The translations under genes and the position numbers were made by a program. Shown here in pieces: positions 19,887 to 60,327 of a stretch of 64,000 nt of DNA; position 1 is the stretch's first letter, and every line of letters begins with the position of its first letter. A model generated the notes under the pieces. It saw nothing but the letters and a program-made list of their open reading frames with translations, had not been told where the DNA came from and ran no database searches. The stretch comes from Escherichia coli (GTDB lineage Bacteria; Pseudomonadota; Gammaproteobacteria; Enterobacterales; Enterobacteriaceae), in assembly GCF_003790525.1 (NCBI RefSeq), contig NZ_CP033635.1; one strand, written 5' to 3'.

Positions 19887-20172
19887 ACTTTATCTCCGTA
19901 TTCAATAATTGAGTAAAACAATCCCCCGCGCTTATATAAGCGCGTTGATATTTTTAATTATTAACAAGCAACATCATGCTAATACAGACATACAAGGAGA
20001 TCATCTCTCTTTGCCTGTTTTTTATTATTTCAGGAGTGTAAACACATTTTCCGTCTCCCTGGCTAATAACCACATTGGCATTTATGGAGCACATCACAAT
20101 ATTTCAATACCATTAAAGCACTGCATCAAAATGAAACACTGCGATATTAAAATTCTTTCAATTTGAAAAGCA

Positions 20173-22122: not shown

Positions 22123-22500
22123 TCAAGTCATTTTCAGAACTTGTATCAGAATGCTATGCCAGTAAGCTTGATCAAACGCAATAATATCTAGTCTGGATCA
22201 TTACAAAAACAGACCTTATCAACAATGTAACCATACATACATTAGAAAGAATAACCGTTAAAGCAATAAAAAACGAATAATACATTAGATAAATTTTAAA
22301 AATGCCAACAACATCTGAAATCTTTGCGTTTGATATTTATCATTATTCAAACTGAAACAACACAGGCATACGAGTTGTTTCACTGTGAAACAGTGCAGCG
22401 AAATTTGTTCTGCCCTTTTATTTCCTCAAAGATATTTCGTCGTTAAATTCCAAAATTGACTGACTATTCAACTCAGCGTAAATATCAGGAGAAATAATGT

Positions 22501-24240
22501 ATGGCGAGGATGCGTGCAATCGAAGCTGCAGTAGAAATACTGAAAAAAGAAGGCATTAGCGTTGCTTTTGGTGTACCCGGCGCAGCAATCAACCCACTCT
22601 ATGCCGCGATGAAAAAATCAGGCGGTATTGATCATATTCTGGCCCGTCATGTTGAGGGCGCCTCGCATATGGCTGAAGGTTACACCCGCAGTCAGAATGG
22701 CAATATTGGCGTGTGTATTGGCACATCAGGCCCTGCGGGCACTGATATGATTACGGGGCTTTATTCCGCCTCCGCGGATTCCATTCCTATTCTCTGCATT
22801 ACTGGTCAAGCTCCCGTAGGAAAACTTCATAAAGAAGATTTCCAGGCCGTCGATATTGAGGCTATCGCCACGCCAGTAACCAAAATGGCTCGCACAATTC
22901 TCGAAGCGGGTCAGTTGCCGGGGATATTCCAGAAAGCCTTCTGGGAAATGCGTTCAGGCCGCCCTGGCCCGGTTCTTTTAGATCTCCCTTTTGATGTTCA
23001 GATGACCGAAATTGAGTTTGATATCGATCTCTATCAGCCACTAACCCCCTGGCAACCTCAGGCAACACGGGCCCAGGCCGTACGCGCATTAGAAATGCTA
23101 AATGGCGCCGAAAAGCCCGTCATCATCGCTGGCGGTGGCATTATTAACGCCAAAGCGAGTGAATTGTTGCGTGAGTTTGTCGAGTTAACTGGCGTTCCCG
23201 TCATTCAAACCTTACGCGGTTGGGGCGCATTATCAGATGATCATCCCCTAATGATTGGTCGCATGGGATGTCAGGCGGGTCATCGCTATGGTAACGCCAG
23301 TTATCTGGCCTCCGATTTTGTTTTTGGTATCGGTAACCGTTGGGCAAACCGTCATACCGGAGCCATTGAGACCTACACCGAAGGCCGCAAATTCATTCAT
23401 GTTGATATCGAACCTGCACAAATTGGCCGGATATTTGCGCCGGATCTGGGCATTGTTTCTGATGCTGAAAGCGCCTTAACGCTATTTATTCAGGTCGCCC
23501 GTGATATGAAGTCACGTGGAGAACTGAAAGACCGCAGTCGCTGGATTGCCGAATGTGCCGAGCGTAAACGCACAATGCTTCGTCGTTCAGACTTTGACTG
23601 CAATCCAATTAAACCGCAGCGCGTGTATCACGAAATGAATAAGGTTTTCGGACCGGAGACACGCTATATTTCGACAATTGGTCTGGCGCAAATCGCCGCA
23701 AACCAATTTTTACATGTTTACCGCCCACGCCACTGGATTAATGCCTGTCAGGCTGGGCCGCTAGGCTGGACAATGCCCGCAGCACTGGGCGCGGTAAAAG
23801 CTGATCCATCTGTTCCCGTTGTGGCAATATCCGGTGATTACGATTTTCAATTCTTGATTGAAGAATTAGCCGTCGGCGCACAATTTAATCTTCCGTATAT
23901 CCATATTTTACTTAACAACGCTTATCTTGGTTTGATTCGTCAATCACAACGTGCATTTGATATTGATTATTGCGTTCAACTGTCATTTGAAAATATTAAT
24001 GCTCCAGAAATTAATGGTTATGGCGTTGATCATAAAGCTGTGGTTGAAGGATTAGGATGTAAAGCGATTCGCGTATTCGCATCACAGGATATTGCGCCTG
24101 CACTGCAAGAAGCCCAGCGTTTGCGTGACGAATTTCACGTACCTGTTGTTGTGGAAATTATTGCTGAACGCGTGACTAATATCGCTATGGGACCTGACAT
24201 TAATAAAGTCACAGAATTTGAAGAAATTCTCGATTTATAA
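22501..24240 (+). CDS. Glyoxylate carboligase-like ThDP enzyme (Gcl paralog)
   Basis: 579 aa; N-terminus ([41 protein letters not shown]) is near-identical in pattern to Gcl; ATG 22501 lies 10 nt after AGGAG. Confidence 0.8.
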
Positions 24241-24252
24241 GGAAACAGGATT

Positions 24253-25035
24253 ATGGCAAAGTTTGCAGCAAATTTATCTATGCTCTTTACCGAGTATCCA
24301 TTTATTGAACGTTTTGCACAGGCAAGTCACGCAGGATTCCACGGCGTTGAGTATCTTTTCCCCTATGACTTTTCTGCAGATGAGTTGGTTTCGCAACTGC
24401 ATCAACATAATCTGACGCAGGTTCTGTTTAATCTTCCTGCGGGTAACTGGCAAGAGGGTGAACGGGGTATTGCATGTCATCCTGGTCGGGCAAAAGAATT
24501 TCAGGAGAGCGTTTCCAGGGCAATAGAGTATGCATTGGCCCTTAATTGTTCACAAGTTAATTGCCTTGCAGGAAAACATCCAGGTGGTTATTCGCATGAA
24601 CAATGTCATGAAACACTGGTCGAAAATTTGCGCTATGCGGTAGATAAATTGGCTTCTCATGGGATAAAGTTAGTTCTGGAAGCCATTAATACAAAAGATA
24701 TTCCCGGTTTTTTTGTTAACAATACCAGACAAGCTCTCAATATTATTCATGATGTAAAACATCCTGATTTGCGCTACCAATACGATATTTATCATATGCA
24801 AATCATGGAAGGGAATATTGCTACAACAATCAAAAACAACCTGAATAACATTGGACATATTCAATTAGCCGATAACCCTGGGCGTCATGAACCAGGGACG
24901 GGAGAAATTAATTACCCGTGGTTGTTAAATTATATAGACCAGATTGGTTATCAGGGATGGATTGGTTGCGAATATATTCCATCTACGACAACGACTGAAA
25001 GTCTACGCTGGCTAAAAAACGAGACTCAATTTTAA
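24253..25035 (+). CDS. Hydroxypyruvate isomerase-like (Hyi family, TIM-barrel sugar isomerase)
   Basis: 260 aa, directly downstream of the gcl-like gene as in the gcl-hyi-glxR arrangement. Confidence 0.75.
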   Translation: MAKFAANLSMLFTEYPFIERFAQASHAGFHGVEYLFPYDFSADELVSQLHQHNLTQVLFNLPAGNWQEGERGIACHPGRAKEFQESVSRAIEYALALNCSQVNCLAGKHPGGYSHEQCHETLVENLRYAVDKLASHGIKLVLEAINTKDIPGFFVNNTRQALNIIHDVKHPDLRYQYDIYHMQIMEGNIATTIKNNLNNIGHIQLADNPGRHEPGTGEINYPWLLNYIDQIGYQGWIGCEYIPSTTTTESLRWLKNETQF

Positions 25036-25052
25036 TCCCTGAGGTATTTATC

Positions 25053-25940
25053 ATGAATATTGGATTTATCGGCACCGGCATAATGGGTAAGCCGATGGCT
25101 TATAATTTACAACAAGCCGGACATACTCTTTATTTTTCAGCGCATTTTGAACCTGCACCGCAAGAGCTTATTGGTGAACGTGGCATTGTTTGCTCTACAC
25201 CGCGTGAAGTCGCGCAGGAGTGTGAGGTCATCATCACCATGCTCCCTGATACCCCACATGTTGAGGATGTTCTTTTTCATCCCAACTATGGCGTAATACA
25301 CGGTTTAAGCCACGGGAAAATTGTCATTGATATGAGTTCAATTTCCCCGGTTGCCACCAAAGCATTTGCACAACGTATTATCGCGGGAGGCGCGGAATAT
25401 ATCGATGCGCCCGTCTCTGGCGGTGAAGTTGGCGCGAAAGCCGGGACGCTTTCCATTATGGTTGGCGGATGTGAAGAGGTTTATTTACAGATCAAACCGA
25501 TTCTGGAATTGATGGGTAAAAATATCACTCTGGTCGGGAACGTCGGTGATGGTCAAACGTGCAAAGTCGCTAACCAAATTATTGTTGCACTGAATATTGA
25601 AGCGGTGGCTGAAGCCCTGCTCTTTGCCAGTAAATCAGGTGCCGATCCCGCCCGCGTACGTGAAGCTCTGATGGGGGGTTTTGCTTCCTCTCGTGTATTG
25701 GAAGTTCATGGCGAACGGATGATCAAAGGGACATTCGCCCCTGGTTTTCGAATTAGCCTGCATCAAAAAGATCTGAATCTGGCACTGGAGAATGCTCGCC
25801 TGTTGAATACCCCGCTTCCTAACACGGCTATGACGCAACAATTATTTAGCGCCTGCGCCGCGCTCGGTGGTAAAGAGTGGGATCATTCTGCGTTAATTCG
25901 GGCGCTTGAAACACAAGCCAATTTCACTATCCGTAAATAA
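25053..25940 (+). CDS. Tartronate semialdehyde reductase-like (beta-hydroxyacid dehydrogenase family)
   Basis: 295 aa; N-terminal NAD-binding GFIGTGIMG; third gene of the gcl-like operon. Confidence 0.8.
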   Translation: MNIGFIGTGIMGKPMAYNLQQAGHTLYFSAHFEPAPQELIGERGIVCSTPREVAQECEVIITMLPDTPHVEDVLFHPNYGVIHGLSHGKIVIDMSSISPVATKAFAQRIIAGGAEYIDAPVSGGEVGAKAGTLSIMVGGCEEVYLQIKPILELMGKNITLVGNVGDGQTCKVANQIIVALNIEAVAEALLFASKSGADPARVREALMGGFASSRVLEVHGERMIKGTFAPGFRISLHQKDLNLALENARLLNTPLPNTAMTQQLFSACAALGGKEWDHSALIRALETQANFTIRK

Positions 25941-26014
25941 TGAATTAAGGGAACCACCGGTTCCCTTCGTTCACTCGTTGCCCTGCCCCATTCCCCTATT
26001 TTGAGAGACCTGCT

Positions 26015-27157
26015 ATGAAGATAGTTATCTCCCCCGACTCCTTTAAAGAATGCCTTCCCGCATGGAAAGTCGCCGAAGCGCTGGCAACCGGCTGGCGCAA
26101 GGTCCTGCCTGGCAGCCAACTGGTGTGTTTGCCCGTGGCTGACGGCGGCGAAGGCACGCTCGAAACACTCATTCATGCGACTGACGGTACGTTTTACACT
26201 AAAAAAGTCACCGGACCGCTTGGCGAATCAATACATGCGCAATACGGTATTTTAGGCAACCAAACCACCGCAGTGATAGAACTGGCACAAGCTTCAGGGC
26301 TGGAACTGGTTTCTCCTGTCCAGCGTTCTCCCCTTTATACGACGTCGTTTGGCACTGGCGAACTTATTCTCGCCGCCCTGGAACACAATATTGATACCGT
26401 TATTCTATGCCTGGGTGGCAGTGCTACAAATGATGGCGGTATTGGGTTGATGTCGGCACTTGGCGCATCGTTTACAGACGCCGAAGGGCTATCAGTCTCT
26501 GTTAATGGGATGGGGCTGGCGGCAATTCACCACATTGACTTACAGCACCTCGATCCACGATTGAAAAATGTGAAATTTATTGCAGCCTGTGATGTCACCA
26601 ACCCACTAACCGGCGATAACGGCGCGACTCGGGTTTTTGCTCAACAAAAAGGGGCCAGTGCTGACAACCTTGAGCAACTGGAACAGGGAATGAAAAACTA
26701 TGCCCGTTGCATCTACCGTTGTTGTGGTAAAGAAGTCGATACGATACCCGGTTCTGGGGCGGCTGGCGGCGTTGGCGCGGCCTTGATGGCTTTTCTCGAT
26801 GCTCGCTTACAACCGGGTATTTCGCTCGTGCTGGAAGCGATTCAATATACCCAACATTTAAAATATGCAGCATTGGCGATTGTCGGTGAAGGTAAATTAG
26901 ACCGTCAAAGCCTGAATGGCAAAGCACCTGTGGGGGCGGCCAAAATCGCCCAGATGATGGGCGTTCCGGTTATCGCAATTGCCGGGTATATCGATGATCA
27001 ACTTGATTTGAATGAGTTACGCCAGTGTGGAATCGAAGCCTGTTTTTCCGTCGTCAATGGTCCTTGTGATTTACCCACCGCGCTGAGTCAGGGGGAAAAT
27101 AATTTAATTCGTCTCGGAGAAAATTTGGCAGGGTATTTTCATGCAGTCCTGAGTTAA
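26015..27157 (+). CDS. Glycerate kinase (GlxK/GarK family)
   Basis: 380 aa; starts MKIVISPDSFKE, typical of the glycerate kinase family. Confidence 0.8.
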   Translation: MKIVISPDSFKECLPAWKVAEALATGWRKVLPGSQLVCLPVADGGEGTLETLIHATDGTFYTKKVTGPLGESIHAQYGILGNQTTAVIELAQASGLELVSPVQRSPLYTTSFGTGELILAALEHNIDTVILCLGGSATNDGGIGLMSALGASFTDAEGLSVSVNGMGLAAIHHIDLQHLDPRLKNVKFIAACDVTNPLTGDNGATRVFAQQKGASADNLEQLEQGMKNYARCIYRCCGKEVDTIPGSGAAGGVGAALMAFLDARLQPGISLVLEAIQYTQHLKYAALAIVGEGKLDRQSLNGKAPVGAAKIAQMMGVPVIAIAGYIDDQLDLNELRQCGIEACFSVVNGPCDLPTALSQGENNLIRLGENLAGYFHAVLS

Positions 27158-27212
27158 TTCCCGTTCGGTAAAATGCCCGATAATGCAAATTACCGGGCAT
27201 TCCTGAACATCA

Positions 27213-28754
27213 TTATTCATCTCTCGCGGTTTTCTCTTCAGCCGCAAGCTGTGTCAAAAAACTCTTCAATAAAATAAACACTACGCCGCAAAGCGGTAGT
27301 CCGGCCAGGATAGAGACCGTTTGTAGCGGTTGCAGACTTTGCGCATCAAGAAGATAGAGTGTGATTGCGACGATTCCGGTCATAATCAACCAAAATGCCA
27401 CGTTCCAGAATGCCGGTTCACTCTCACTATCTGCCCGTTTTTGCGTCGCAAAACCGAGGGCATAACCCACAGTACAGTGTCCGGTAATATATGAAATTAA
27501 TGCTATAGCCCCAAAAGCAACCAAAAACACCTGACTTGCGGGTAGCTGCTCCAGTAAACGAGAAACGACAACGCCTCGCCCTTGTTCGTTAAGTATGGGA
27601 ACAAAATCGATGACATGAGTTGTCTGCAACGATAAGCCGAAATTAGCCAGTACCATGTAAAAAACCATGCATCCCAATGAACCTGCCAGAGTTCCACATA
27701 CAATCAATTGCCGGATCGTCCTTCCTTTTGAAATACGGGCGATAAATAAACCGAATGGGATGGCATACACGACCCACCATGAAAAATAAAATACGGTCCA
27801 CATCTGTGGAAATCCGCTACGACCAATAGCATCGGTACTTAAACTCATCGCTACAAAATTTTGCAGCATCAGGCCGAAACCATCAATTGATTGGTTAAGT
27901 ATAAAAGCTGTCGGTCCACAAATCAGTATTGCCAGTAGCATAAAAATATCGGCACGAATATTCCAGTTACTGGCCCATGCCACACCTTTTTTAAGTCCAA
28001 AAAAGAGAATTAATAATGGCACTAGCGTCCAGATAAAAATAACCATGACATTGATAAACTGCCCGGCAGGATCCAGATGGAACACATGGCAAAATACGGC
28101 AGAAATCATCGGCGTTCCCAGCGCCAGAGACGTTACCGCGCCGCCGAGCAAACCAAACATGTAGAAAAAATTCACACAATGCCCGCAAAAACCATCAGCA
28201 CGTGCCCCCAGACACCCACGGCATAAATCACTGACCTTTAATGAGTTCGTTTTCTTAACATGCATAAACCAACCAATGGGAACGGCACAAATCAGATACC
28301 ATGCCCATGCGGACGGCCCCCAATGGAACATGCCATAAGCAGAGGCCCAACGAGCAGCCTGAGCGCTTCCTGCTGTCGCGCCAAAAGGCGGTTGCTGAAT
28401 GATCCAAATCCACTCTACAGAGGCCAGATATAACAAGCTGCCCCCCGTTCCAGAAGTAAAAATAAGTCCAAGCCAGGTTAACAAGCTGAAGTCAGGCTTT
28501 TCTCCCGACTGACCTAACAAGATATCGCCATAACGTGAGAAGGCCAGCCACAGACAACAAAGTACAACCAGAAAAGTCATGACCAGAAAAATCCCGCCCA
28601 TTTCCCAGGTTAAAAAATGATGTATTTTATTTATATACCGGCTGGTATCTTGTGGATATATCGTCAAACACAGAATGATTACCGCAATAAATAATATTGC
28701 TGGGATAAACACATTCAGTTCAATCAAAGAAAAGCGTTTTTTTAAATATTGCAT
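27213..28754 (-). CDS. BCCT-family transporter (betaine/carnitine/choline type)
   Basis: 513 aa from ATG 28754 (AGGAG upstream); contains the BCCT signature-like stretch WTVFYFSWWVVYAIPFGLFIARISKGRTIRQ. Confidence 0.7.
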   Translation of the reverse strand: MQYLKKRFSLIELNVFIPAILFIAVIILCLTIYPQDTSRYINKIHHFLTWEMGGIFLVMTFLVVLCCLWLAFSRYGDILLGQSGEKPDFSLLTWLGLIFTSGTGGSLLYLASVEWIWIIQQPPFGATAGSAQAARWASAYGMFHWGPSAWAWYLICAVPIGWFMHVKKTNSLKVSDLCRGCLGARADGFCGHCVNFFYMFGLLGGAVTSLALGTPMISAVFCHVFHLDPAGQFINVMVIFIWTLVPLLILFFGLKKGVAWASNWNIRADIFMLLAILICGPTAFILNQSIDGFGLMLQNFVAMSLSTDAIGRSGFPQMWTVFYFSWWVVYAIPFGLFIARISKGRTIRQLIVCGTLAGSLGCMVFYMVLANFGLSLQTTHVIDFVPILNEQGRGVVVSRLLEQLPASQVFLVAFGAIALISYITGHCTVGYALGFATQKRADSESEPAFWNVAFWLIMTGIVAITLYLLDAQSLQPLQTVSILAGLPLCGVVFILLKSFLTQLAAEEKTARDE

Positions 28755-28777
28755 TTCAGTCTCCTGAATGTTTTCAT

Positions 28778-29002
28778 TCAATGAGGACGAATATTTCGCC
28801 GTTCCTTTTTCATGTGTTGCAATTGTCGGGAAAGGCGTAAAGAAAAAAAGGCGCAAATAAGTGAAAGTACCGCAATACAATACAGAGCTAAACCACACTG
28901 ATGCTGTTGCAGCATGAACAGGAATATCCCCAAAAAGAGGCCGCAGAGAACTGTGGTTATCCAGTAATTGGCACTTAAGTGCTCCAGGTCATCATCCCTC
29001 AT
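28778..29002 (-). CDS. Small two-span membrane protein upstream of the BCCT transporter
   Basis: 74 aa from ATG 29002, with AGGAG 7 nt upstream; two hydrophobic segments; 23 nt upstream of the BCCT start on the same strand. Confidence 0.35.
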   Translation of the reverse strand: MRDDDLEHLSANYWITTVLCGLFLGIFLFMLQQHQCGLALYCIAVLSLICAFFSLRLSRQLQHMKKERRNIRPH

Positions 29003-29054
29003 GGTCTTTCTCCTGCAAGGCGCAGAGAGGCTTTCAGCTCTCTGCGCCTTGTTG

Positions 29055-30419
29055 TTATGCCAGACGTACGCCCTGCTGTTGCAGCGTGTTTTGCAAATCA
29101 GGAATAGCAACCTGACGCACGGTGCAATGTTGCTGTAGCGAAACCACGGCGGCAGTGCCTGCGGCCTCACCGGTAACGGCACAACACATCATGTTGCGCA
29201 TAGAAGTATGTGCAACTACGCCTGCGGAAATACAGCGACCGGCGACCAAAAGGTTCTCCACTTTTTGTGGCACCAGACAGCCATAGGGGATCTGAAAGAA
29301 ACGCCCGGTCGTTGGCAAAATGAGATAACCGGAACCATCAATAAATTCCGGGAAAATCCCTACACTGTCCGAACAACGCCCCTGATTAAGGACGTAATCA
29401 TCAGCAATACGTATTTCCCCCTCAATAAGCCGTGATTCGCGTGTACCCAGCGTGGCGCCAAAATTGCGTAACCGTACATTTTCAAAGCCCGGAACATAAT
29501 GGCGTAGAGCGTCAATTGCCCATAATGCTTGCTGCCTTCCGGCGATTTCTGCTTTGGTTAAATCGAAGACATCGGTACAGTCAAAACCAAAGGCGTACAC
29601 CATATTCATCTGAAACGCTTCGCCGCTTTCAGAAAAGGTTGACCAGGTTCCGGCAATCGCCTGGGCGTCGCCTGGAATCACACCATCCTGCTGCGCCCGG
29701 GTAAAAATATCCTCCATATAAGGGCTAAACATCTGGTCTTCTTTGCCCGTGGTTTGAATCGTCCAGTTTTTTCCCCAATCCGCGTAGGTCGGCTTAAGTT
29801 CTTCCGCAACAAAACGGTTAAAGCGCGCCACATCGACACCTGCGCAACTGAACATCACGGTGACGCCCATCAGTTGGTCCTTTCCCCGTTTCGTCCAGGG
29901 CGCGCCTGCACGAGCAGCAATATCAGCATCCCCCGTGCAATCGACGATTCTTTTCGCCAGAATTGCCCCTCGTCCTGATTTGTTCTCGACAATAACACCG
30001 CATAACGTATCCCCTTCCTTGATCACATCCACAACCCAGGAGTGATATAACGGCTCAACGCCAGCTTCCGTTATCATCTGATCGGCAACAACTTTAAATC
30101 CTTCAGTATCTATAACTTCGCTAATTGACTGAGGTTCTGGTCGCGTGAAGCCCAATGCTCGCGCGCGGCCTTCATATTCACGACAAATCCCTTCACAATC
30201 TTCCGTCCCCGGATGGCGATACCAGGCAAAACTTTCCACACCAACCTGCGTCAATACGCCGCCTAGTGAGCCGTAACGCTCAACAATCATGGTTCTGGCA
30301 CCTAGCCGCCCCGCCGCTATCGCCGCCGTTAATCCTGCCGGACCGCCCCCGATAACCAGAACGTCCGTTTGTGCAATGACTGGCGTTTGCCGTGCACTTT
30401 CATTAATCATGTCCACCAT
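29055..30419 (-). CDS. FAD-dependent oxidoreductase (paralog 2)
   Basis: Start chosen at ATG 30419 (GGGGGAA upstream); the track ORF starts at TTG 30449, overlapping the upstream MFS gene; VLVIGGGPAGLTAAIAAGRLGARTMIVERYGSLGG fold; paralog of 18516-19886. Confidence 0.7.
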   Translation of the reverse strand: MVDMINESARQTPVIAQTDVLVIGGGPAGLTAAIAAGRLGARTMIVERYGSLGGVLTQVGVESFAWYRHPGTEDCEGICREYEGRARALGFTRPEPQSISEVIDTEGFKVVADQMITEAGVEPLYHSWVVDVIKEGDTLCGVIVENKSGRGAILAKRIVDCTGDADIAARAGAPWTKRGKDQLMGVTVMFSCAGVDVARFNRFVAEELKPTYADWGKNWTIQTTGKEDQMFSPYMEDIFTRAQQDGVIPGDAQAIAGTWSTFSESGEAFQMNMVYAFGFDCTDVFDLTKAEIAGRQQALWAIDALRHYVPGFENVRLRNFGATLGTRESRLIEGEIRIADDYVLNQGRCSDSVGIFPEFIDGSGYLILPTTGRFFQIPYGCLVPQKVENLLVAGRCISAGVVAHTSMRNMMCCAVTGEAAGTAAVVSLQQHCTVRQVAIPDLQNTLQQQGVRLA

Positions 30420-30436
30420 TGGTTCCCCCATCAGAT

Positions 30437-31705
30437 TCAGGATGCGCAATCCGCATTGTTTTCAGTGATTTCATTGACTTGATTTTTACTTTTACGATTC
30501 ACACGCTGGAGGACCAGTGCGGCGATAAGGCCGATGAATGCGCAAACCAACATGAACAGGAAAACATCCTGATAACCGGCAATACCCGGTTTGCGGTCGA
30601 CCATATTGCCCACCATCGTGTAGCAGTAGATTTCCGGGAAATAGGTCAGTAAAGAGATCAGACCCGCAGCAGTCCCTGTGACTTTTGCCGGGATCCGAAT
30701 CTCATCAATAATTGAGAAGAACACGGCATTCGCAGAGTAAATAAACACGCCCAACGCAACCATATTCGCCAGCGCAATAGTGACGTAGCGCGACTCACCG
30801 GGCAGGAAGAAATAAACGGTAGTAAAGACAATCATGCCGATAAAGGCGTAAATCATAAAACGCGTGCGTGACGCACAGCGGTCGGCCAGTTGTCCGCCAA
30901 TTAATCCCCCCATCGCAAATAACACATAGGCGCGAAGAATACTGGCAACTGCCACTTCCGATTCGCCCATATGCAGGATCTGCGTGAGATACGGCGTGAC
31001 CATGCCAAAGCCGATATAAATTGACCACATACAAAAGGTCACAACACCTGCCAGCCAAACCGTCGGCATTTTCAGCACGAATGCCATATCTGCCAGACGG
31101 AAATTCGCTTTATCTTCGCTGTGCGTTTCATCCTGACAAACAAACCAGGCTAAAACACCGGCCAGAATAGTCACTACGGAATAAAAAATAATTGTCGCCC
31201 GTAAACCATCAACACCTTCGCCAAATTTGGCAAATACCGGCACGGAAAGAAATCCCAGTACAATGGAGGTTAATCCCTTACCCAGAAACCAGTAACCGTA
31301 TAAGCGACCTTGTTCTTCGCTGGTTCCCAGGGTACGAATAATTCGCACACACACGGCCCAAAACGTAAATACGGTTGTAACAGCCCAAAGTGCATGTAAC
31401 AAACAGATCATAGTATACGAGGGGAAGGTCGCATAATAAAAACCACTTATCCCGGTGGAAATTAATGAAAAGGTCATTAATTTACGTGCAGAAAATCTAT
31501 CGGCAGCCCAACCGCCAGGTAGATATAATAAAAAGTTCACCAGACCATAGGCTGTCATTAGAAAACCAAGTTCAGCATTAGTCGCTCCTGTAGCCTGCTG
31601 CATCGCGTCGTAATAGGTTTCCCGTAAATAAGGCAATTTATATATTGCACTTCCGGCAATACCACATAACGCCAGCGTGATCCAACGTTTCCAGTTACTG
31701 GTCAT
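30437..31705 (-). CDS. MFS transporter
   Basis: 422 aa, 12-span hydrophobic profile; immediately upstream of FAD oxidoreductase paralog 2 on the same strand. Confidence 0.75.
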   Translation of the reverse strand: MTSNWKRWITLALCGIAGSAIYKLPYLRETYYDAMQQATGATNAELGFLMTAYGLVNFLLYLPGGWAADRFSARKLMTFSLISTGISGFYYATFPSYTMICLLHALWAVTTVFTFWAVCVRIIRTLGTSEEQGRLYGYWFLGKGLTSIVLGFLSVPVFAKFGEGVDGLRATIIFYSVVTILAGVLAWFVCQDETHSEDKANFRLADMAFVLKMPTVWLAGVVTFCMWSIYIGFGMVTPYLTQILHMGESEVAVASILRAYVLFAMGGLIGGQLADRCASRTRFMIYAFIGMIVFTTVYFFLPGESRYVTIALANMVALGVFIYSANAVFFSIIDEIRIPAKVTGTAAGLISLLTYFPEIYCYTMVGNMVDRKPGIAGYQDVFLFMLVCAFIGLIAALVLQRVNRKSKNQVNEITENNADCAS

Positions 31706-31772
31706 ATTTATTCCCGAATGAAGTATTTAAAATGACACCAACGGCCTGCTTTGCACAGGCCGTATTATTTTT

Positions 31773-32855
31773 TTAAAGTCCCAAATGATGTGCAGTTAAA
31801 ATTGCGCAAAGAACGTCCTGCGCTGTTACTACGAATGGCATATTATGGATAGTTTCCCCTTCAGCAGTCGCTGCTTCAGCCACTGCCCGTAATTTATCTT
31901 TATTAATTTCCTTCACGCCTAACATATGAAGATTTGTCGGCAGACCAACGCTATGGCAGAAATTGAGTACGGTTTCAATTTCCTCCTGTGGTGCGTTTTC
32001 CAGTACGAGCTGTACCAGGACGCCAAATGCCACTTTTTCACCGTGGTAGCAATGATGGCATTCCTCCAGTTGCGTCATGCCGTTATGAATGGCATGAGCT
32101 GCCGCCAGGCCGCTACTTTCAAATCCAATGCCGCTAAGATAGGTATTAGCTTCGATAATATTCTCTACCGCTTTGGTGCTAACACCTTGTTCAACCGCGA
32201 CTTTTGCCTTATAGCCATCTTCCAGTAGCGTGGTATAACAGAGTCGGGCAATAGCCAGTGCCGCCAGTGTCGACGCCCCACCTGCCATTGTGGCTTTTCC
32301 TGACGCCTGATTGGCTCTCGCCTCAAACCAGGTTGACAATGCATCTCCCATACCGGCCACCAGCAGACGCACTGGCGCGGCTGAAATGACGCCAGTATCC
32401 ATAATCACCATATCCGGGTTTTTCGGGAAAAACAGATATTCGCTAAACTGGCCTTCCGGGGTGTAAATTACTGCCAGAGAACTGGTTGGCGCATCTGTGG
32501 AAGCAATTGTCGGCACCACCACTACCGGAATTTTTTGGTAATACGCTACGGCTTTTGCCGTATCCAACGTTTTACCGCCGCCAATACCAATAACGACATT
32601 ATATTTACGCTGATTAAATTTCTCACGAATTCGAGAAATTTCATTTTGCGAGCATTCACCGCAAAAAACATCAAGATCCGCAATAATGTTTTCTCTTGCA
32701 AAGCTCTGGCTTACTCTGTCACCAACCAGACCGGTCACAAATTCATCTGCAATAATTAATGGTTCTGTTCCCAAACTCGCCGCATATGTAGCAATATTAT
32801 CCAGAGAACCATTTCCCTGGATATATTTAGCCGGACTTATAATAATCTTATCCAT
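31773..32855 (-). CDS. Glycerol dehydrogenase-like (iron-containing alcohol dehydrogenase family, GldA paralog)
   Basis: 360 aa; GIGGGKTLDTAKA and GFESSGLAAAHAIHNG motifs as in GldA. Confidence 0.8.
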   Translation of the reverse strand: MDKIIISPAKYIQGNGSLDNIATYAASLGTEPLIIADEFVTGLVGDRVSQSFARENIIADLDVFCGECSQNEISRIREKFNQRKYNVVIGIGGGKTLDTAKAVAYYQKIPVVVVPTIASTDAPTSSLAVIYTPEGQFSEYLFFPKNPDMVIMDTGVISAAPVRLLVAGMGDALSTWFEARANQASGKATMAGGASTLAALAIARLCYTTLLEDGYKAKVAVEQGVSTKAVENIIEANTYLSGIGFESSGLAAAHAIHNGMTQLEECHHCYHGEKVAFGVLVQLVLENAPQEEIETVLNFCHSVGLPTNLHMLGVKEINKDKLRAVAEAATAEGETIHNMPFVVTAQDVLCAILTAHHLGL

Positions 32856-33174
32856 ATCATTCCTCGCGTAACTTGTTTTGCTTCACTGTTAACCTACTCG
32901 TTGCATCCAGTGGCGGCAAACATTTCATTCGCGAAAAATTATGTTTTATGATCGCGCTGTAAAAAACATCATCTGCAGATGATAATAAAAAACACTTTTC
33001 ATGCCTTAATCACAATATATCAATATCCATACTGGTCCCTTTTCATTTTGAAACAACACCATGAATTAACTGTTTCATTATGAATCTTATTATCGTGCGA
33101 TTTGTTTTATTGCGGTTGGAGAATTAATCTCGCAAACATATTTAGCGCGATTTACGTAATTTATCAGAACAGGA

Positions 33175-51078: not shown

Positions 51079-51142
51079 TGTTATTTTTATCGCACAAGGG
51101 TGGGCATCCCTGCCCGTAATGACGTCCCTGAACCTGGGTAGG

Positions 51143-51691
51143 TTATTGATACTGAACCTTGAAGGTCGCATCCGCATTAGCAGCACCTGGGGTTGCGGCA
51201 CCGGTTGCAAAATAACGCGCCTGGAACGGAATGGTGTTGGTTCCGTTATTCAGGGTTGTTTGTGCACTAAATGTCGCACCGTCCAGCGCCAGCGCAGCAC
51301 CCGTTCTGTCCAGGATCTGCACACCAACTTTTGTTGCGCTACCCGCAGCTGAACTCTGCAAAGCTAATACGTTAGGATGAGTTCCATCAATTGCGGTACC
51401 AAGGAAGGCAATAGCAGCTTTGTCTGCAACAGTAGTGTCACAATCGTTCAGTTGAATGTTAAAACCGACAGCAGAACTGGTTGCTCCTTCTTGTGCCAGC
51501 GATGCGGTACGAACCTGCCCTAACTGAACGGTTTGATCAACAGAGCCTGCATCAACTGCGCAAGCGGCGTTAACAACTTCCCCTTTAAAGTGAACGGTCC
51601 CACCATTTACCGTCGTAGTATCAGCCAGAGCCGCTGCGGAACTGAGGGACAGAGCCGACAGAACAACGATTGCCAGAGTTTTAATTTTCAT
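51143..51691 (-). CDS. fimA: Type 1 fimbrial major subunit FimA
   Basis: 182 aa; signal peptide [24 protein letters not shown]-terminal FKVQYQ. Confidence 0.9.
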
Positions 51692-51810
51692 GCTGCTTTC
51701 CTTTAAAAAAACTATTTCTAAATCGACATGGGCAGTCGTTCTGTACGCTTTGTTTTGTCAACGAGTTTGACTGCCAACACTGCACAGTTTCCCCCCAAAA
51801 GATGAAACAT

Positions 51811-52124
51811 TTGGGGCCATTTTGACTCATAGAGGAAAGCATCGCGCACAAACTTTTTCAGTTTATTTGTTGGCTTAATATTCTATTGTTATCTTTATTT
51901 ATAGATTTTTATATTGCATGAGGTGGTTTTTGGAGAGAAGAATGAGGAAGATGCATCGAGCCACAGAAACGTTAGCTTTACATATAGCGGAGGTGATGTG
52001 AAATTAATTTACAAGAGAAATAATTTACATATCAAACAGTTAGATGCTTTTTGTCGTTTTTTGATATTTTTATGCTTGAGAAAAAATACGTAACTTATTT
52101 ATGATATGGACAGTTTGGCCCCAA
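51811..52124. promoter_or_regulatory. fimS: fimS invertible element (314 bp) bounded by 9 bp inverted repeats TTGGGGCCA / TGGCCCCAA
   Basis: Inverted repeats at 51811-51819 and 52116-52124 are exactly 314 bp apart (outer edges), between fimE and fimA. Confidence 0.8.
52076..52106 (+). promoter_or_regulatory. fimA promoter (TTGAGA - 18 bp - TATGATA) inside fimS, pointing toward fimE (phase OFF)
   Basis: -35 TTGAGA at 52076-52081 and -10 TATGATA at 52100-52106 read on the + strand; they abut the fimE-proximal inverted repeat, while fimA is on the - strand at the other end. Confidence 0.55.
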
Positions 52125-52171
52125 TTGTCTTGTATTTATTTGTTTTTTAACTTTATTATCAATAAGTTAAA

Positions 52172-52768
52172 TCAAACCTCTTCTCTTTTTAATTTTTCGT
52201 TTATGAGATTATTTCTTTCCCATAATCCGGCAAAACGAGCAGCATTACTGGCGGTATAACGCACAGTATGGCGAATATTTCGATGCCCGAGATAATCCTG
52301 AATTAAACGGGTATCTGCACCACGCTCTGCCAGTTCATAACCGCAAGCATGCCTTAACATATGAGGATGAGTCTGCGTTACGGTTCCAGCTTCAATACCG
52401 GCATCGCGAATAATGCGATAGGCCTGCTGGCGAGAAAGCCGACTCCCGCGGCGAGAAATAAATATAGCGTCGGTCCGGTCAGCGCCTTTCCAGTTAGCAC
52501 GTTCCTGGGTCCAGCGTTCCACGGCTTCACGCTCATCAAAACGTAACGGGTGAACGGTAGAAAATCCGTTCTTCAGTCGGCGAATATTTATTCGACCTTC
52601 ATTAAGGTCAAGGTCCTGATAATGCAGATCAAGCAGTTCACTAATACGCATCCCATGCCGATATGCCAACAGAATAAGACAATAATCTCTGGCTCCCGTT
52701 GCCCCGTAACAAACCGCCTGCATCATGGCCTGAACTTCTTTACCGGTAAGATAACGACGTTTACTCAC
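52172..52768 (-). CDS. fimE: Tyrosine recombinase FimE (ON-to-OFF switching)
   Basis: 198 aa; matches FimE. Confidence 0.9.
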   Translation of the reverse strand: MSKRRYLTGKEVQAMMQAVCYGATGARDYCLILLAYRHGMRISELLDLHYQDLDLNEGRINIRRLKNGFSTVHPLRFDEREAVERWTQERANWKGADRTDAIFISRRGSRLSRQQAYRIIRDAGIEAGTVTQTHPHMLRHACGYELAERGADTRLIQDYLGHRNIRHTVRYTASNAARFAGLWERNNLINEKLKREEV

Positions 52769-53245
52769 AATAGTAGTACTCCTGACTGAGATATATTTGA
52801 ATGAATACCTATAGGAAACCTCAATCGGTCAAAATTAGCCCAATAGATAAAAAGATAACCATACACGAAGTGATGTGGCTATCAGTCAATTACATTAAAT
52901 ATCATACAAAAATAAAATATCACCGATGTGACAACATCTATTTTCATTGATTTGATTCAATATAACAATAGATTGCAGAAGATTAACTTCCAGTTGCTTA
53001 AAAAATAAAGAAAAAAGTGTGGAAACAGGAGAATTTAAGTGATGTGTAAATTTATGAATGATTTTGTTTATTTATTTTGAAGAACATAAACCATTGTATT
53101 TTGTATGGATATGGTTAACTTAATGTTTATTATGATAATTAAGAATTACACTTACAATAACATCAATTAATAAATGGTTAATCATTTTTGATATATCGTA
53201 AGAATAATGTAGTTTTTAACACCATCCATGGTATCTCAACTATCT

Positions 53246-53848
53246 CTATAAAACAGCGTGACGCTGTCGTCCTCTGGCTCTATCCCAGATGCCGTAAAAA
53301 CGCCCTGCATTGCTGGCGGTATACCAGACAGTATGACGAATATTGCGATGCCCAAGATAATCCTGGATAAGTCGCGTATCTATTCCCATATTCGCCAAAG
53401 CAAAACCACACGAATGGCGTAACATGTGCGGATGAATCTCCAGTGACAACCCGGCATTACCACCGGAAGTCGAGATAATATGGTAAAACTGTTGCCGAGA
53501 AAGTGGATTCCCCTTACGTGATAAAAATACCCACTCGCTCTCAGCATGCGGATAAGAAGTACGGATACTCAACCAGTTTTTTAAAGCCTGAATTTCTTTG
53601 TTCAATAGCGGGTGCGTTGTTGAAAAGCCTTTTTTTAATCGATGGATATATATACACTTTGCCTTAAGATCAATATCCGAAATCCTCAATCGGCAAATTT
53701 CACTCGCCCGGAAACCATGAATAAAACAAAGCAAAGTCAGACAATAATTACGTGCAGCATGAGGCCCGGTATTTGCTGCTTTAAGGAGTGATTCGATTTC
53801 ACTATGGGTAAGGAAGTTCCTTTTTTTGTTATCAGCCTTATTCTTCAT
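53246..53848 (-). CDS. fimB: Tyrosine recombinase FimB (bidirectional switching)
   Basis: 200 aa; matches FimB. Confidence 0.9.
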   Translation of the reverse strand: MKNKADNKKRNFLTHSEIESLLKAANTGPHAARNYCLTLLCFIHGFRASEICRLRISDIDLKAKCIYIHRLKKGFSTTHPLLNKEIQALKNWLSIRTSYPHAESEWVFLSRKGNPLSRQQFYHIISTSGGNAGLSLEIHPHMLRHSCGFALANMGIDTRLIQDYLGHRNIRHTVWYTASNAGRFYGIWDRARGRQRHAVL

Positions 53849-55302: not shown

Positions 55303-56019
55303 ATGAAAAAGGCTAAAATACTTTCTGGCGTATTATTACTGTGCTTTTCGTCACCATTAATTTCTCAGGCTGCGACACTGGACGTACGTGGTGGATATCG
55401 TAGCGGAAGCCATGCCTATGAGACTCGACTCAAAGTCAGTGAGGGATGGCAAAATGGATGGTGGGCAAGCATGGAAAGTAATACCTGGAATACCATTCAT
55501 GATAATAAAAAGGAAAATGCCGCACTCAATGATGTTCAGGTTGAAGTTAATTACGCGATTAAACTTGATGATCAATGGACGGTGCGCCCGGGAATGTTAA
55601 CGCATTTTAGCAGCAACGGCACACGCTACGGACCCTACGTAAAACTGTCCTGGGACGCGACAAAAGATCTTAATTTTGGCATTCGCTATCGTTACGACTG
55701 GAAAGCTTACCGACAACAAGACTTATCCGGTGATATGTCTCGTGATAACGTTCATCGTTGGGATGGATATGTCACTTACCATATTAATAGTGATTTCACC
55801 TTCGCATGGCAAACGACGCTATACAGCAAACAGAACGATTATCGCTATGCAAACCACAAGAAATGGGCGACGGAAAATGCATTTGTTCTACAATACCATA
55901 TGACGCCCGATATTACGCCATACATAGAATATGACTACCTTGACCGCCAGGGTGTTTACAACGGCAGAGATAATTTATCGGAAAACAGTTATCGCATTGG
56001 TGTGTCATTTAAACTGTAG
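55303..56019 (+). CDS. nanC: N-acetylneuraminic acid outer membrane channel NanC
   Basis: 238 aa from ATG 55303; signal peptide and KdgM-family beta-barrel. Confidence 0.9.
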   Translation: MKKAKILSGVLLLCFSSPLISQAATLDVRGGYRSGSHAYETRLKVSEGWQNGWWASMESNTWNTIHDNKKENAALNDVQVEVNYAIKLDDQWTVRPGMLTHFSSNGTRYGPYVKLSWDATKDLNFGIRYRYDWKAYRQQDLSGDMSRDNVHRWDGYVTYHINSDFTFAWQTTLYSKQNDYRYANHKKWATENAFVLQYHMTPDITPYIEYDYLDRQGVYNGRDNLSENSYRIGVSFKL

Positions 56020-56038
56020 TAGACAGGAGACAGTCACA

Positions 56039-57145
56039 ATGAATAAAACAATAATGGCGCTTGCTATCATGATGGCTTCATTTGCCGCAAACGCGTCTGT
56101 ATTACCGGAAACTCCTGTGCCATTTAAAAGTGGTACCGGAGCAATTGATAACGACACTGTCTACATTGGTTTAGGTAGCGCAGGTACAGCATGGTACAAG
56201 CTGGATACACAGGCCAAAGATAAAAAATGGACAGCGTTAGCTGCATTCCCTGGTGGACCGAGAGATCAAGCAACCTCTGCATTTATTGATGGCAATCTGT
56301 ATGTGTTTGGCGGCATTGGCAAAAACAGCGAGGGCTTGACTCAGGTATTTAATGACGTACACAAATACAACCCCAAAACTAATAGCTGGGTTAAATTGAT
56401 GTCGCACGCGCCGATGGGCATGGCGGGCCATGTGACTTTTGTACACAACGGCAAGGCTTATGTTACTGGCGGTGTTAACCAGAATATCTTCAATGGCTAT
56501 TTTGAAGATCTCAACGAGGCTGGAAAAGATTCAACCGCTATAGATAAAATCAACGCCCACTATTTTGACAAAAAAGCAGAAGATTATTTCTTCAATAAGT
56601 TTCTGTTGTCTTTTGATCCCTCAACACAGCAATGGAGTTACGCTGGCGAATCTCCCTGGTACGGAACGGCTGGTGCGGCGGTTGTGAATAAAGGTGATAA
56701 AACCTGGCTTATTAATGGCGAAGCCAAACCAGGATTGCGAACGGATGCCGTATTTGAACTTGATTTCACCGGTAATAATTTAAAATGGAATAAGCTTGAT
56801 CCCGTCTCATCACCAGATGGCGTCGCTGGCGGTTTTGCGGGGATAAGCAATGATTCTCTTATATTTGCCGGAGGGGCCGGATTCAAAGGTTCACGAGAAA
56901 ATTACCAGAACGGTAAGAACTATGCGCATGAAGGCCTGAAAAAATCATATAGCACTGATATTCATCTTTGGCATAACGGGAAATGGGATAAATCGGGTGA
57001 ATTATCGCAAGGTCGGGCCTACGGAGTATCATTGCCCTGGAATAATAGTTTATTAATTATTGGCGGTGCAACTGCAGGCGGCAAAGCGGTGACGGATTCA
57101 GTTTTAATTTCTGTGAAGGATAATAAAGTCACAGTACAAAACTAA
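56039..57145 (+). CDS. nanM: N-acetylneuraminate mutarotase NanM (Kelch repeats)
   Basis: 368 aa from ATG 56039; signal peptide MNKTIMALAIMMASFAANA. Confidence 0.9.
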   Translation: MNKTIMALAIMMASFAANASVLPETPVPFKSGTGAIDNDTVYIGLGSAGTAWYKLDTQAKDKKWTALAAFPGGPRDQATSAFIDGNLYVFGGIGKNSEGLTQVFNDVHKYNPKTNSWVKLMSHAPMGMAGHVTFVHNGKAYVTGGVNQNIFNGYFEDLNEAGKDSTAIDKINAHYFDKKAEDYFFNKFLLSFDPSTQQWSYAGESPWYGTAGAAVVNKGDKTWLINGEAKPGLRTDAVFELDFTGNNLKWNKLDPVSSPDGVAGGFAGISNDSLIFAGGAGFKGSRENYQNGKNYAHEGLKKSYSTDIHLWHNGKWDKSGELSQGRAYGVSLPWNNSLLIIGGATAGGKAVTDSVLISVKDNKVTVQN

Positions 57146-57209
57146 CGCTTCAGGGCCCCGGTAAAGGGGCCCTGCTATCAATTTGTCATTTGTATTACGC
57201 GAAAATTAT

Positions 57210-58190
57210 ATGAACGCAATAATATCGCCCGATTATTACTATGTTCTTACCGTTGCTGGTCAGTCTAATGCCATGGCGTATGGCGAAGGACTGCCATTAC
57301 CGGACAGGGAAGATGCGCCTCATTCCAGAATTAAACAATTAGCGAGATTTGCGCATACGCATCCCGGAGGCCCGTCATGTCACTTTAACGACATTATTCC
57401 TCTGACTCACTGCCCACACGATGTTCAGGATATGCAGGGTTATCACCATCCTCTGGCAACGAATCATCAAACACAGTACGGCACCGTTGGCCAGGCACTG
57501 CATATTGCACGAAAATTACTGCCCTTTATTCCTGATAACGCAGGGGTTCTCATCGTTCCGTGTTGCCGTGGCGGATCGGCTTTTACCGCGGGCAGCGAAG
57601 GGACATATTCAGAACGGCACGGAGCCAGCCATGATGCTTGTCGTTGGGGATCGGATACTCCGCTATACCGGGATTTAGTCAGCAGAACGCGAGCCGCACT
57701 GGCAAAAAATCCGCAGAACAAATTCCTCGGCGTATGCTGGATGCAAGGCGAATTTGACTTAACGACCAGTGACTACGCGTCACACCCTCAACACTTTAAT
57801 CATATGGTTGAAGCCTTTCGTAGGGATCTAAAACAATACCATTCTCAGCTTAATAATATTACTGACGCGCCGTGGTTTTGCGGCGATACCACCTGGTACT
57901 GGAAAGAAAAATTCCCTCATGCGTATGAAGCTATTTATGGCAATTATCAAAATAATGTTTTAGCCAATATTATTTTCGTCGACTTCCAGCAACAAGGTGA
58001 AAGAGGACTGACGAACGCGCCTGTTGAAGACCCGGACGATTTAAGCACGGGATATTACGGTTCAGCGTACCGGTCACCGGAGAGCTGGACGACGGCACTG
58101 CGAAGCAGTCATTTCAGCGCGGCAGCCCGTCGGGGGATTATTTCTGACAAGTTTGTAGAAGCAATTTTGCAGTTTTGGCGCGAAAGGTGA
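57210..58190 (+). CDS. nanS: 9-O-acetyl-N-acetylneuraminate esterase NanS
   Basis: 326 aa from ATG 57210; third gene of nanCMS. Confidence 0.85.
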   Translation: MNAIISPDYYYVLTVAGQSNAMAYGEGLPLPDREDAPHSRIKQLARFAHTHPGGPSCHFNDIIPLTHCPHDVQDMQGYHHPLATNHQTQYGTVGQALHIARKLLPFIPDNAGVLIVPCCRGGSAFTAGSEGTYSERHGASHDACRWGSDTPLYRDLVSRTRAALAKNPQNKFLGVCWMQGEFDLTTSDYASHPQHFNHMVEAFRRDLKQYHSQLNNITDAPWFCGDTTWYWKEKFPHAYEAIYGNYQNNVLANIIFVDFQQQGERGLTNAPVEDPDDLSTGYYGSAYRSPESWTTALRSSHFSAAARRGIISDKFVEAILQFWRER

Positions 58191-58243
58191 GCGTTCATTA
58201 ATTTGATTTATTTGCATCCATCAACGCTTTTAACTGCTCCGGC

Positions 58244-58990
58244 GTGCGGCACTATAATGGTTTTCACAACAAGGAGCCATTTTCTTATACCACTTTCAGA
58301 GACCATCCGCTTATGCCACCGCCCTCTACGCAACTGTTTGCAGAGCACCTTCCCACCGAGTGGATACAGCACCTCCTGACGCTTTCTGCTCATGCGACCA
58401 TTTGTCGTCTTAACCTGAGCGCGGATGGCGAAGCGGGGATTAGCCTGCTGGCCCGCAGCGCTGTCACCCAGGAGCGCCAGCGCGTGGGGGCCCCCTGGTG
58501 GAATGGCTCTTCCGCCAGACCGCACAGACATGGGGCGCGGAACGTTACCTGAAGGATGACTGGCACGGCCTGCAACTTTTTGCCATTGATGGCGCACAGT
58601 TCAGGACACCTATGAACCTGAGTTGCGCGAATATTATGGCTCTGCCAACACATCCACTGAGCGGCAGAGCGCCTACCCGGTCATGCGTCTGGTGGCGTTA
58701 ATGAATCTGGGAATCACATTCTGCTGAATGCCATGACCTCGGCCTACCGGCGGAGCGATACAGCGTGAGGCAACTAAAGCGGCGTCAGAAATCAGCTTTA
58801 AGTTCGCATTCCAGTTTATCGTGACAGAAATGATAGTGCAGGGAAATACGGCGTCACCAGGAACCATCCCGAAACGGCTGGAGCATCTGCGGGGTGCTCT
58901 GGAAGCGGTGTTCCCACGACTATCAAGGCCGAGGGCTGTTAAGGTATCAAAAACCCGTTATCCGGTGAAACACAGTGCCGCCCCGCTTAA
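58244..58990 (+). pseudogene. IS4-family transposase remnant (frameshifted, internally deleted)
   Basis: Translations in two frames align to IS4 transposase segments as I recall them (e.g. QTAQTW ... LFAIDGAQFRTP and the C-terminal KTRYPVKHSAAP); no intact ORF; no terminal inverted repeats identified. Confidence 0.5.
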
Positions 58991-59163
58991 GTGACGGCAT
59001 TGTGTTTCTGACTGGCCTTAACTTTCCCTGAATCTCTGACGATCCTCACCATTGATATTTTCTTCATTCCTCACCAGAGAAATAAAAAATCACTATACTC
59101 ATCAAAATATGAGATTACATTTATTCAGGCGATCACCTTACTATTTTATACGGAAAATAAATC

Positions 59164-59814
59164 ATGAATATCCGTCAATCATTACATGACCGAATCTATG
59201 CAGAATACCCTCAACAGGCTAAAGATATATTACTGTATTTCCCCACTTATGAAATTATGCCATCGACCATAAAAATGGTTATGATTAATGAGGTGGTAGC
59301 TATAACACCGCAAGAAGATTTTTATACACCAGAGTCTGGTTATTTTACGACTGTCGCCCGACAGTTAGCGCTGGCTGGATTATCGGCAAGTAGTGGCGAA
59401 GTCTTACTCAACCATGGTATCTACCTGACCTCCGCACTGAAACTACCTAAAACACAGATCACAGCCACACCCGCGGAGATCATTCTCTGGTCACCTATTG
59501 TAGAATGGGAGCTCGAACTCTTTGCCAATATAAAAGTTATTTTCGTTGGCGGCGATATCGCGCGAAAATGCCTTAACATCATCGCGAAAAAGCAAACACG
59601 TAAACATGCCATCCCTTCAACTCCGACGTACAAACTGATGAATAGCGAATTAGTCTGGAAAGGAATAAGCATACTTCCTGGATATATTCTTACCGGAAAA
59701 AACCTGCTCATTGAAAAGTCAAAAATCGAAATGAATGTCGAACAATTAAGAAAAGGAATTGCGATTTATCGCAATAGTAACAGTAACCATACGAATAATT
59801 CAGTTCATGAATAA
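59164..59814 (+). CDS. Hypothetical protein (216 aa), AT-rich; possibly uracil-DNA-glycosylase-superfamily-like
   Basis: ATG 59164; no close family recognised; weak resemblance to UDG-fold motifs (IFVGGDIARK ... KHAIPSTP); convergent with the helicase gene. Confidence 0.45.
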   Translation: MNIRQSLHDRIYAEYPQQAKDILLYFPTYEIMPSTIKMVMINEVVAITPQEDFYTPESGYFTTVARQLALAGLSASSGEVLLNHGIYLTSALKLPKTQITATPAEIILWSPIVEWELELFANIKVIFVGGDIARKCLNIIAKKQTRKHAIPSTPTYKLMNSELVWKGISILPGYILTGKNLLIEKSKIEMNVEQLRKGIAIYRNSNSNHTNNSVHE

Positions 59815-60327
59815 GAGATGAATCATTAATAACAAGAAATCACTGACAAACCACCTGTAAAAGGTCAATCATTTTAGTTCAATTTCCTTTGTCATGATTA
59901 TATTTTTATCGTCCTGACGATACTATTAACAATTACAATATTTATACCCTCCCCAGAACAAACAGAAAAGAACTCATACATTCGTTTATAATTCTGGTAA
60001 TCCTGGCATCATACGTTTAAAATTTAAGGTGTTTGTTTTATAATCATGATTCCAAAGACTATTGGTCACCAGAAAATGCCAGCCTTTTCGTGCCAGCTAT
60101 ATTTGTCCAGTGTGTTACCCCATCCAAAAATCATCCACATCCTGATGTTACGTTAGATATAGAGAAAACAGGTTGTACTGTGCAATATGCTAACCGCATA
60201 AGCGAATATAATTTCTAAGCTGATATTGTCTGGCTGTTGGGAGCTAAACAATATAAATATCGCCAGTTGCCAGAACGGTTATATAGACCAGGAGCGTTTC
60301 GGCTCCTGGTCTGTTTCGGACATATTA

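Follow-up and report, generated by a model that had tools for sequence, protein, structure and literature searches.

The window analysed here is a stretch of Escherichia coli DNA of 64,000 nucleotides (1-64000), which corresponds to the reverse complement of SMS-3-5 (NC_010498.1) positions 4935429-4999428 or comes from a genome very closely related to SMS-3-5. Identity with SMS-3-5 is 100% over 56000-64000 and over 51500-52450 (951 bp around the element described below), and two differences (13642 C/T and 23152 A/G) were found over 1-49929. The gene fimA (51143-51691, - strand) encodes the major type 1 fimbrial subunit and is the first gene of fimAICDFGH, with fimI, fimC and fimD coming after it in the list of open reading frames. 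The genes fimE (52172-52768, - strand, 198 aa) and fimB (53246-53848, - strand, 200 aa) encode tyrosine DNA invertases, FimE with an ON-to-OFF bias and FimB acting in both directions. Both proteins are full length and exceed the curated cutoffs of NCBIfam models for tyrosine-type DNA invertases: FimE, which is identical to K-12 FimE, reaches 451.7 bits against NF007371 (cutoff 222), and FimB, which carries one substitution relative to K-12 (I86V), reaches 458.4 bits against NF007370 (cutoff 221). The gene names are backed by identical proteins annotated in SMS-3-5. Relative to K-12, FimA itself has 13 changes in 182 residues, as against none in FimE and one in FimB; the major subunit is known to be hypervariable, and the divergent FimA allele fits this.

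Several other features of the window can be noted from the matching SMS-3-5 record. An island of the GimA type, as found in ExPEC, occupies 14800-32900 between hypT/nhaC and the dha genes in the SMS-3-5 annotation, and contains ibeA (18516-19886, - strand), dhaR, gcl-hyi-glxR-glxK and several transporters. An open reading frame of 1746 aa (7514-12754, + strand) is an inverse autotransporter, IatD, according to the same annotation. In the region 57183-64000, nanS (sialate O-acetylesterase) is annotated as truncated, with its C-terminus missing. The island beyond nanS carries a gene for a UvrD-like helicase of 704 aa (60328-62442, - strand; GajB-like in PADLOC, 2.6e-36). Next to it, a DEAD/DEAH helicase of ~2,100 aa is represented by its C-terminal part, the remainder falling outside the window (62439-63974, - strand; weak ZorE-like HNH match, 1e-9). 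These genes may form a defence island; a PADLOC scan of the island returned generic UvrD/GajB-like and weak HNH matches, and no defined system.

The invertible element and its sites

Between fimE and fimA, upstream of fimAICDFGH, lies a 314-bp element (51811-52124) with perfect 9-bp inverted repeats at both ends. The fimA-proximal repeat IRR (51811-51819) reads TTGGGGCCA on the + strand, and the fimE-proximal repeat IRL (52116-52124) reads TGGCCCCAA on the + strand, the exact reverse complement of the former. The canonical fimS repeat given in the literature has the sequence TTGGGGCCA (PMC8777976), and both the 314-bp length and the 9-bp repeat of the window match those published for fimS (PMC8777976, PMC9993118). 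In an inverted-repeat search, the surroundings of IRL showed an imperfect symmetry reaching 22 nt with 77% complementarity; half-sites for FimB and FimE have been reported at flanking symmetry overlapping the fimS repeats (PMC9096935). The junction on the fimA side has the sequence ...CTATGAGTCAAAATGGCCCCAAATGTTTCATC when followed toward fimA (51832->51801), and the fimA ATG lies 119 nt beyond IRR.

The best sigma-70 match, taken as the predicted fimA promoter PfimA, lies on the + strand at 52076-52105 and consists of a -35 hexamer TTGAGA, an 18-nt spacer and a -10 hexamer TATGAT(A). It agrees with the consensus at 10 of 12 positions, is the top promoter-like site of 51600-52900 and the only strong sigma-70 match there, and points toward fimE and away from fimA, its -10 hexamer stopping 10 nt short of the fimE-proximal repeat. 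The published description of the element (PMC9993118) likewise has the promoter and the Fis site at opposite ends. A motif scan of 51600-52900 found no intrinsic terminator. The preliminary description of this stretch had proposed a 314-bp element bounded by 9-bp inverted repeats, a promoter-like TTGAGA-18 bp-TATGATA on the + strand beside the fimE-proximal repeat and directed at fimE, a fimA gene on the - strand beyond the other repeat, and a particular sequence at the fimA-proximal end; each of these was recovered at the positions given above.

Neither raw motif is distinctive when considered in isolation. A second perfect 9-nt inverted pair is present within the same 801 bp as the fimS repeats, and the repeat pair alone is at chance level and not significant; the promoter scan returned 4 sites versus 3.3 expected in shuffles, and the promoter match alone is likewise at chance level. 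Because each is at chance level when taken alone, these motifs were not relied upon. The element is accepted as real on account of its ~98-99% identity and colinearity with the K-12 fimS, and of a natural genome that differs solely by inversion of this segment.

The binding sites of accessory proteins are arranged as in the literature, where IHF-2 lies within fimS and IHF-1 adjacent to IRL (PMC9993118). In the window, a predicted IHF-2 site (52030-52042, + strand, TATCAAACAGTTA) upstream of PfimA is a perfect match to the consensus WATCAANNNNTTR, and a predicted IHF-1 site (52157-52169, + strand, TATCAATAAGTTA), outside fimS and adjoining IRL, also matches the IHF consensus perfectly; only 5 matches to the consensus occur in the whole 64-kb window, and these are two of them. 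A Fis site overlapping LRP-2 is predicted at 51853-51888 (- strand), where the published oligonucleotide FBSFOR2 (PMC9993118) aligns. The knockout block of this oligonucleotide falls at ~51865-51873, where the window has CCAACAAAT and the oligonucleotide GGGGTTAGC, differing at 7 of 9 positions, while the rest matches. By sequence match, the Fis/LRP-2 oligonucleotide and the published Lrp probe primers map within 51792-51926, in the promoter-distal half of fimS.

The repeats, the location, the recombinases, the promoter, the regulator sites and the occurrence in both orientations were thus all found as in the E. coli fimS switch, and 51811-52124 is almost certainly fimS, the phase-variation switch of the operon for type 1 fimbriae in E. 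coli, in its OFF orientation.

Orientation of the switch

The orientation was assessed through tests that do not depend on recognising the promoter and are anchored in published assays and reference genomes. The phase assay of the Dorman laboratory, involving PCR with primers OL4 and OL20 and digestion with BstUI, yields fragments of 539+187 bp for OFF and 433+293 bp for ON (PMC9993118). The window contains perfect matches to the two primers at 51657-51676 and 52363-52383, and the in-silico amplicon of 727 bp (51657-52383) has a unique BstUI site (CGCG, 51843-51846) located 186 nt from its OL4 end. Digestion of this amplicon gives 188+539 bp, the published OFF pattern, while the same digest of a construct in which 51811-52124 had been inverted gives 434+293 bp, the published ON pattern. 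The MG1655 reference, treated in the same way, gives 188+540 bp, again the OFF pattern.

A second published reagent, the OFF-specific 135-bp Lrp probe (51792-51926), is generated by primers BSREVBIO (+ strand, 51792-51812) and BSFORBIO (- strand, 51907-51926) (PMC9993118). In the window these converge to give a product of exactly 135 bp; after inversion they would cease to face each other, so that amplification requires template in the OFF orientation. A third indicator is the Fis site, which is described as lying 50 bp from the promoter-distal boundary of fimS (PMC9993118). In the window it lies at ~51865-51873, ~50 bp from the fimA-proximal repeat, placing the promoter-distal end of the element next to fimA.

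The remaining two tests involve genomes of documented phase. For the UTI89 reference genome, fimS is documented as OFF (PMC6458436); its alignment to the uninverted window has 584 identities in 601 positions, that to the inverted construct 445 in 648, and the UTI89 promoter motif lies on the strand antisense to fimA. A 16-bp deletion keeps the fimS of O157:H7 locked in OFF (PMC8605689, citing Li 1997, Roe 2001 and Iida 2001), and the O157:H7 sequence is colinear with the window, with the same junctions and order, differing by the 16-bp deletion.

All five checks (BstUI fragment sizes, OFF-specific probe, Fis position, UTI89 and O157:H7) agree on OFF, and they support the assignment of the window to phase OFF. 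This bears out the reading of the preliminary description, which had suggested alignment to references of known phase and had named a fimA promoter on the opposite strand, making the arrangement phase ON, as the result that would overturn it. An arrangement that is really phase ON, with the true fimA promoter on the - strand near 51811 and a coincidental match on the + strand, could draw on a promoter scan that does not exceed shuffled sequence and on the status of PfimA as a prediction from sequence, but it is contradicted by all five checks, including the published BstUI sizes, the colinearity with the OFF-documented UTI89 and O157:H7 and the position on the fimA side of a Fis site that is promoter-distal in the literature, as well as by the lack of any promoter-like site on the - strand near 51811-51900 in the promoter scan, and is rejected as having practically no chance of being correct.

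Prevalence of the OFF orientation and competence to invert

The frequency of the two orientations was surveyed in 5,426 complete E. coli genomes, using a 130-bp query across the fimA-proximal junction and a coverage of at least 80%. The window-type OFF junction is present in 4,464 of these genomes and the inverted ON junction in 247; of the 4,716 genomes that the OFF-junction query matched at all, 4,711 carry one or the other. Among genomes with the full junction, ~95% are OFF and ~5% ON (247/4,711), a skew of 18:1. The OFF assemblies include BW25113, MC4100 and O157:H7. Among the matches listed, all 15 of 15 sequence-identical relatives of the window are OFF, and one ON genome, M172-1, is sequence-identical to the window apart from the inversion.

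When both recombinases are present, the ON-to-OFF preference of FimE dominates and most cells are OFF (PMC9993118, PMC9096935), and the ~95% of OFF assemblies fits this literature. It is reasonable to infer that the sequenced DNA came from phase-OFF cells, or from a mixture in which their sequence prevailed in the consensus, and the sequenced population was probably mostly OFF. One could suppose instead that the orientation in an assembly is arbitrary, a substantial mixture of ON and OFF cells having been present and one orientation picked by the assembler or finisher; fimS populations are indeed mixtures that assemblies collapse (PMC6458436). Arbitrary choice, however, predicts roughly equal counts of the two junctions, and the skew observed across genomes fits a majority-OFF consensus arising from the FimE bias (PMC9993118), so that this explanation was set aside as very unlikely.

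Whether the switch can invert was addressed by comparison with M172-1 (NZ_CP058714.1). When 51811-52124 is inverted in the window, the fimB-fimC region of the two genomes is identical at 3130 of 3130 positions, with identical FimB, FimE and FimA proteins; when the window is left uninverted, all 189 alignment differences fall inside 51820-52115, strictly between the repeats. M172-1 thus carries the ON state of the same allele, with the segment 51811-52124 in the opposite orientation, implying that this allele exists in both states in nature and that recombination takes place within the 9-bp repeats. Since the two genomes are identical here apart from the inversion, the switch is predicted to be competent in the lineage of the window.

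A switch genetically locked OFF in the window strain and unable to invert, as in O157:H7 or in fimB mutants, would be in line with the uniformly OFF orientation of the sequence-identical relatives among the matches listed, and with the 5 substitutions in fimS and the I86V change in FimB relative to K-12. Against this stand the two perfect 9-bp repeats, the full 314-bp length free of the 16-bp O157 deletion, a FimE identical to that of K-12 and a full-length FimB, whose accession (WP_000790574.1) also occurs in the annotation of UTI89, where inversion of the switch is observed in experiments (PMC6458436). Moreover, the ON orientation was assembled in M172-1, whose fimB-fimC region is identical over 3130 bp and whose FimB and FimE share their protein accessions with those of the window. 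With all parts intact and a relative in the ON state, a locked switch is rejected as highly improbable, and the perfect repeats, full-length element, intact FimB and FimE, IHF sites and M172-1 together suggest that the switch is alive.

Comparison with described systems places the window element close to the K-12 switch. The K-12 fimS and the FimB-FimE phase switch of type 1 fimbriae are reportedly the subject of Abraham et al. 1985 and Klemm 1986. The switch has been reviewed more recently (PMC9993118, PMC8777976). The window shares with K-12 the locus, the 314-bp length, the 9-bp repeats, the promoter hexamers and the IHF and Fis/Lrp site sequences, and the K-12 MG1655 reference is colinear with it in the same orientation. 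It differs from K-12 in the 5 substitutions in 314 bp and in its divergent FimA allele, and no functional difference between the two fimS elements is apparent from their sequences. The O157:H7 fimS has the same orientation and junctions, but the window lacks the 16-bp deletion that lies between the IHF-2 site and the -35 hexamer, and as a full-length element it should be switchable rather than locked. A more distant likeness is to ipuS and hyxS, further switches of UPEC that Fim recombinases act on, and to other promoter invertons, in which a promoter on a short segment is flipped by tyrosine recombinases between short inverted repeats (PMC6458436); these differ in their loci, repeats (7 bp in ipuS) and target genes.

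Expected consequences of the OFF orientation

In the mechanism known from the literature, FimB (in both directions) and FimE (mainly from ON to OFF) bind half-sites that overlap the 9-bp inverted repeats and recombine these, assisted by the cofactors IHF, Lrp, Fis and H-NS, which flips the 314-bp segment bearing the fimA promoter. In the OFF orientation, PfimA, positioned beside the fimE-proximal repeat, would fire toward fimE, which would leave fimA cut off from its promoter and fimAICDFGH as a whole promoterless, and fimbriae would not be made. Under the FimE bias, OFF cells would predominate in an ordinary culture, and the OFF orientation of the assembly would reflect this majority in the consensus. 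The same orientation would place a fimS-borne Rho-dependent terminator downstream of fimE; a review (PMC12360218) states that the OFF orientation enables Rho-dependent termination.

The small RNA FimR2 (35 nt, 51098-51132, - strand) is also present in the window, identical to its K-12 counterpart, which is annotated in MG1655. FimR2 derives from the fimA 3' UTR and is processed from the fimAICDFGH transcript (PMC9723502), and should therefore likewise be silent in the OFF state. An Rfam scan of the whole window gave no hits, Rfam being without a family that detects FimR2.

In the OFF orientation the predicted PfimA is directed at fimE, whose stop codon is 66 nt away. As a long shot, it might drive an antisense transcript across IRL, IHF-1 and the 3' end of fimE, a reading with which the lack of any intrinsic terminator in the scan of 51600-52900 is compatible. 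Were this the case, the antisense transcript could add to the orientational control of FimE based on the Rho terminator. To our knowledge, published work attributes this control to the terminator rather than to PfimA.

The finding of fimS in the OFF orientation is not new in itself: the element is a textbook promoter inverton, and it is found here in the state that reference assemblies such as MG1655, UTI89 and O157:H7 show by default, so that the orientation of the window carries little weight as a discovery. The survey of complete genomes serves as a baseline, by which it is an ON assembly that would stand out. At this site, the RefSeq records of MG1655 and SMS-3-5 were found to contain no fimS, mobile-element, regulatory, repeat or fimA-promoter feature. 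The switch and its state are unmarked by annotation pipelines, and whether fimA is expressed can be read from a genome only if the orientation of fimS is checked.
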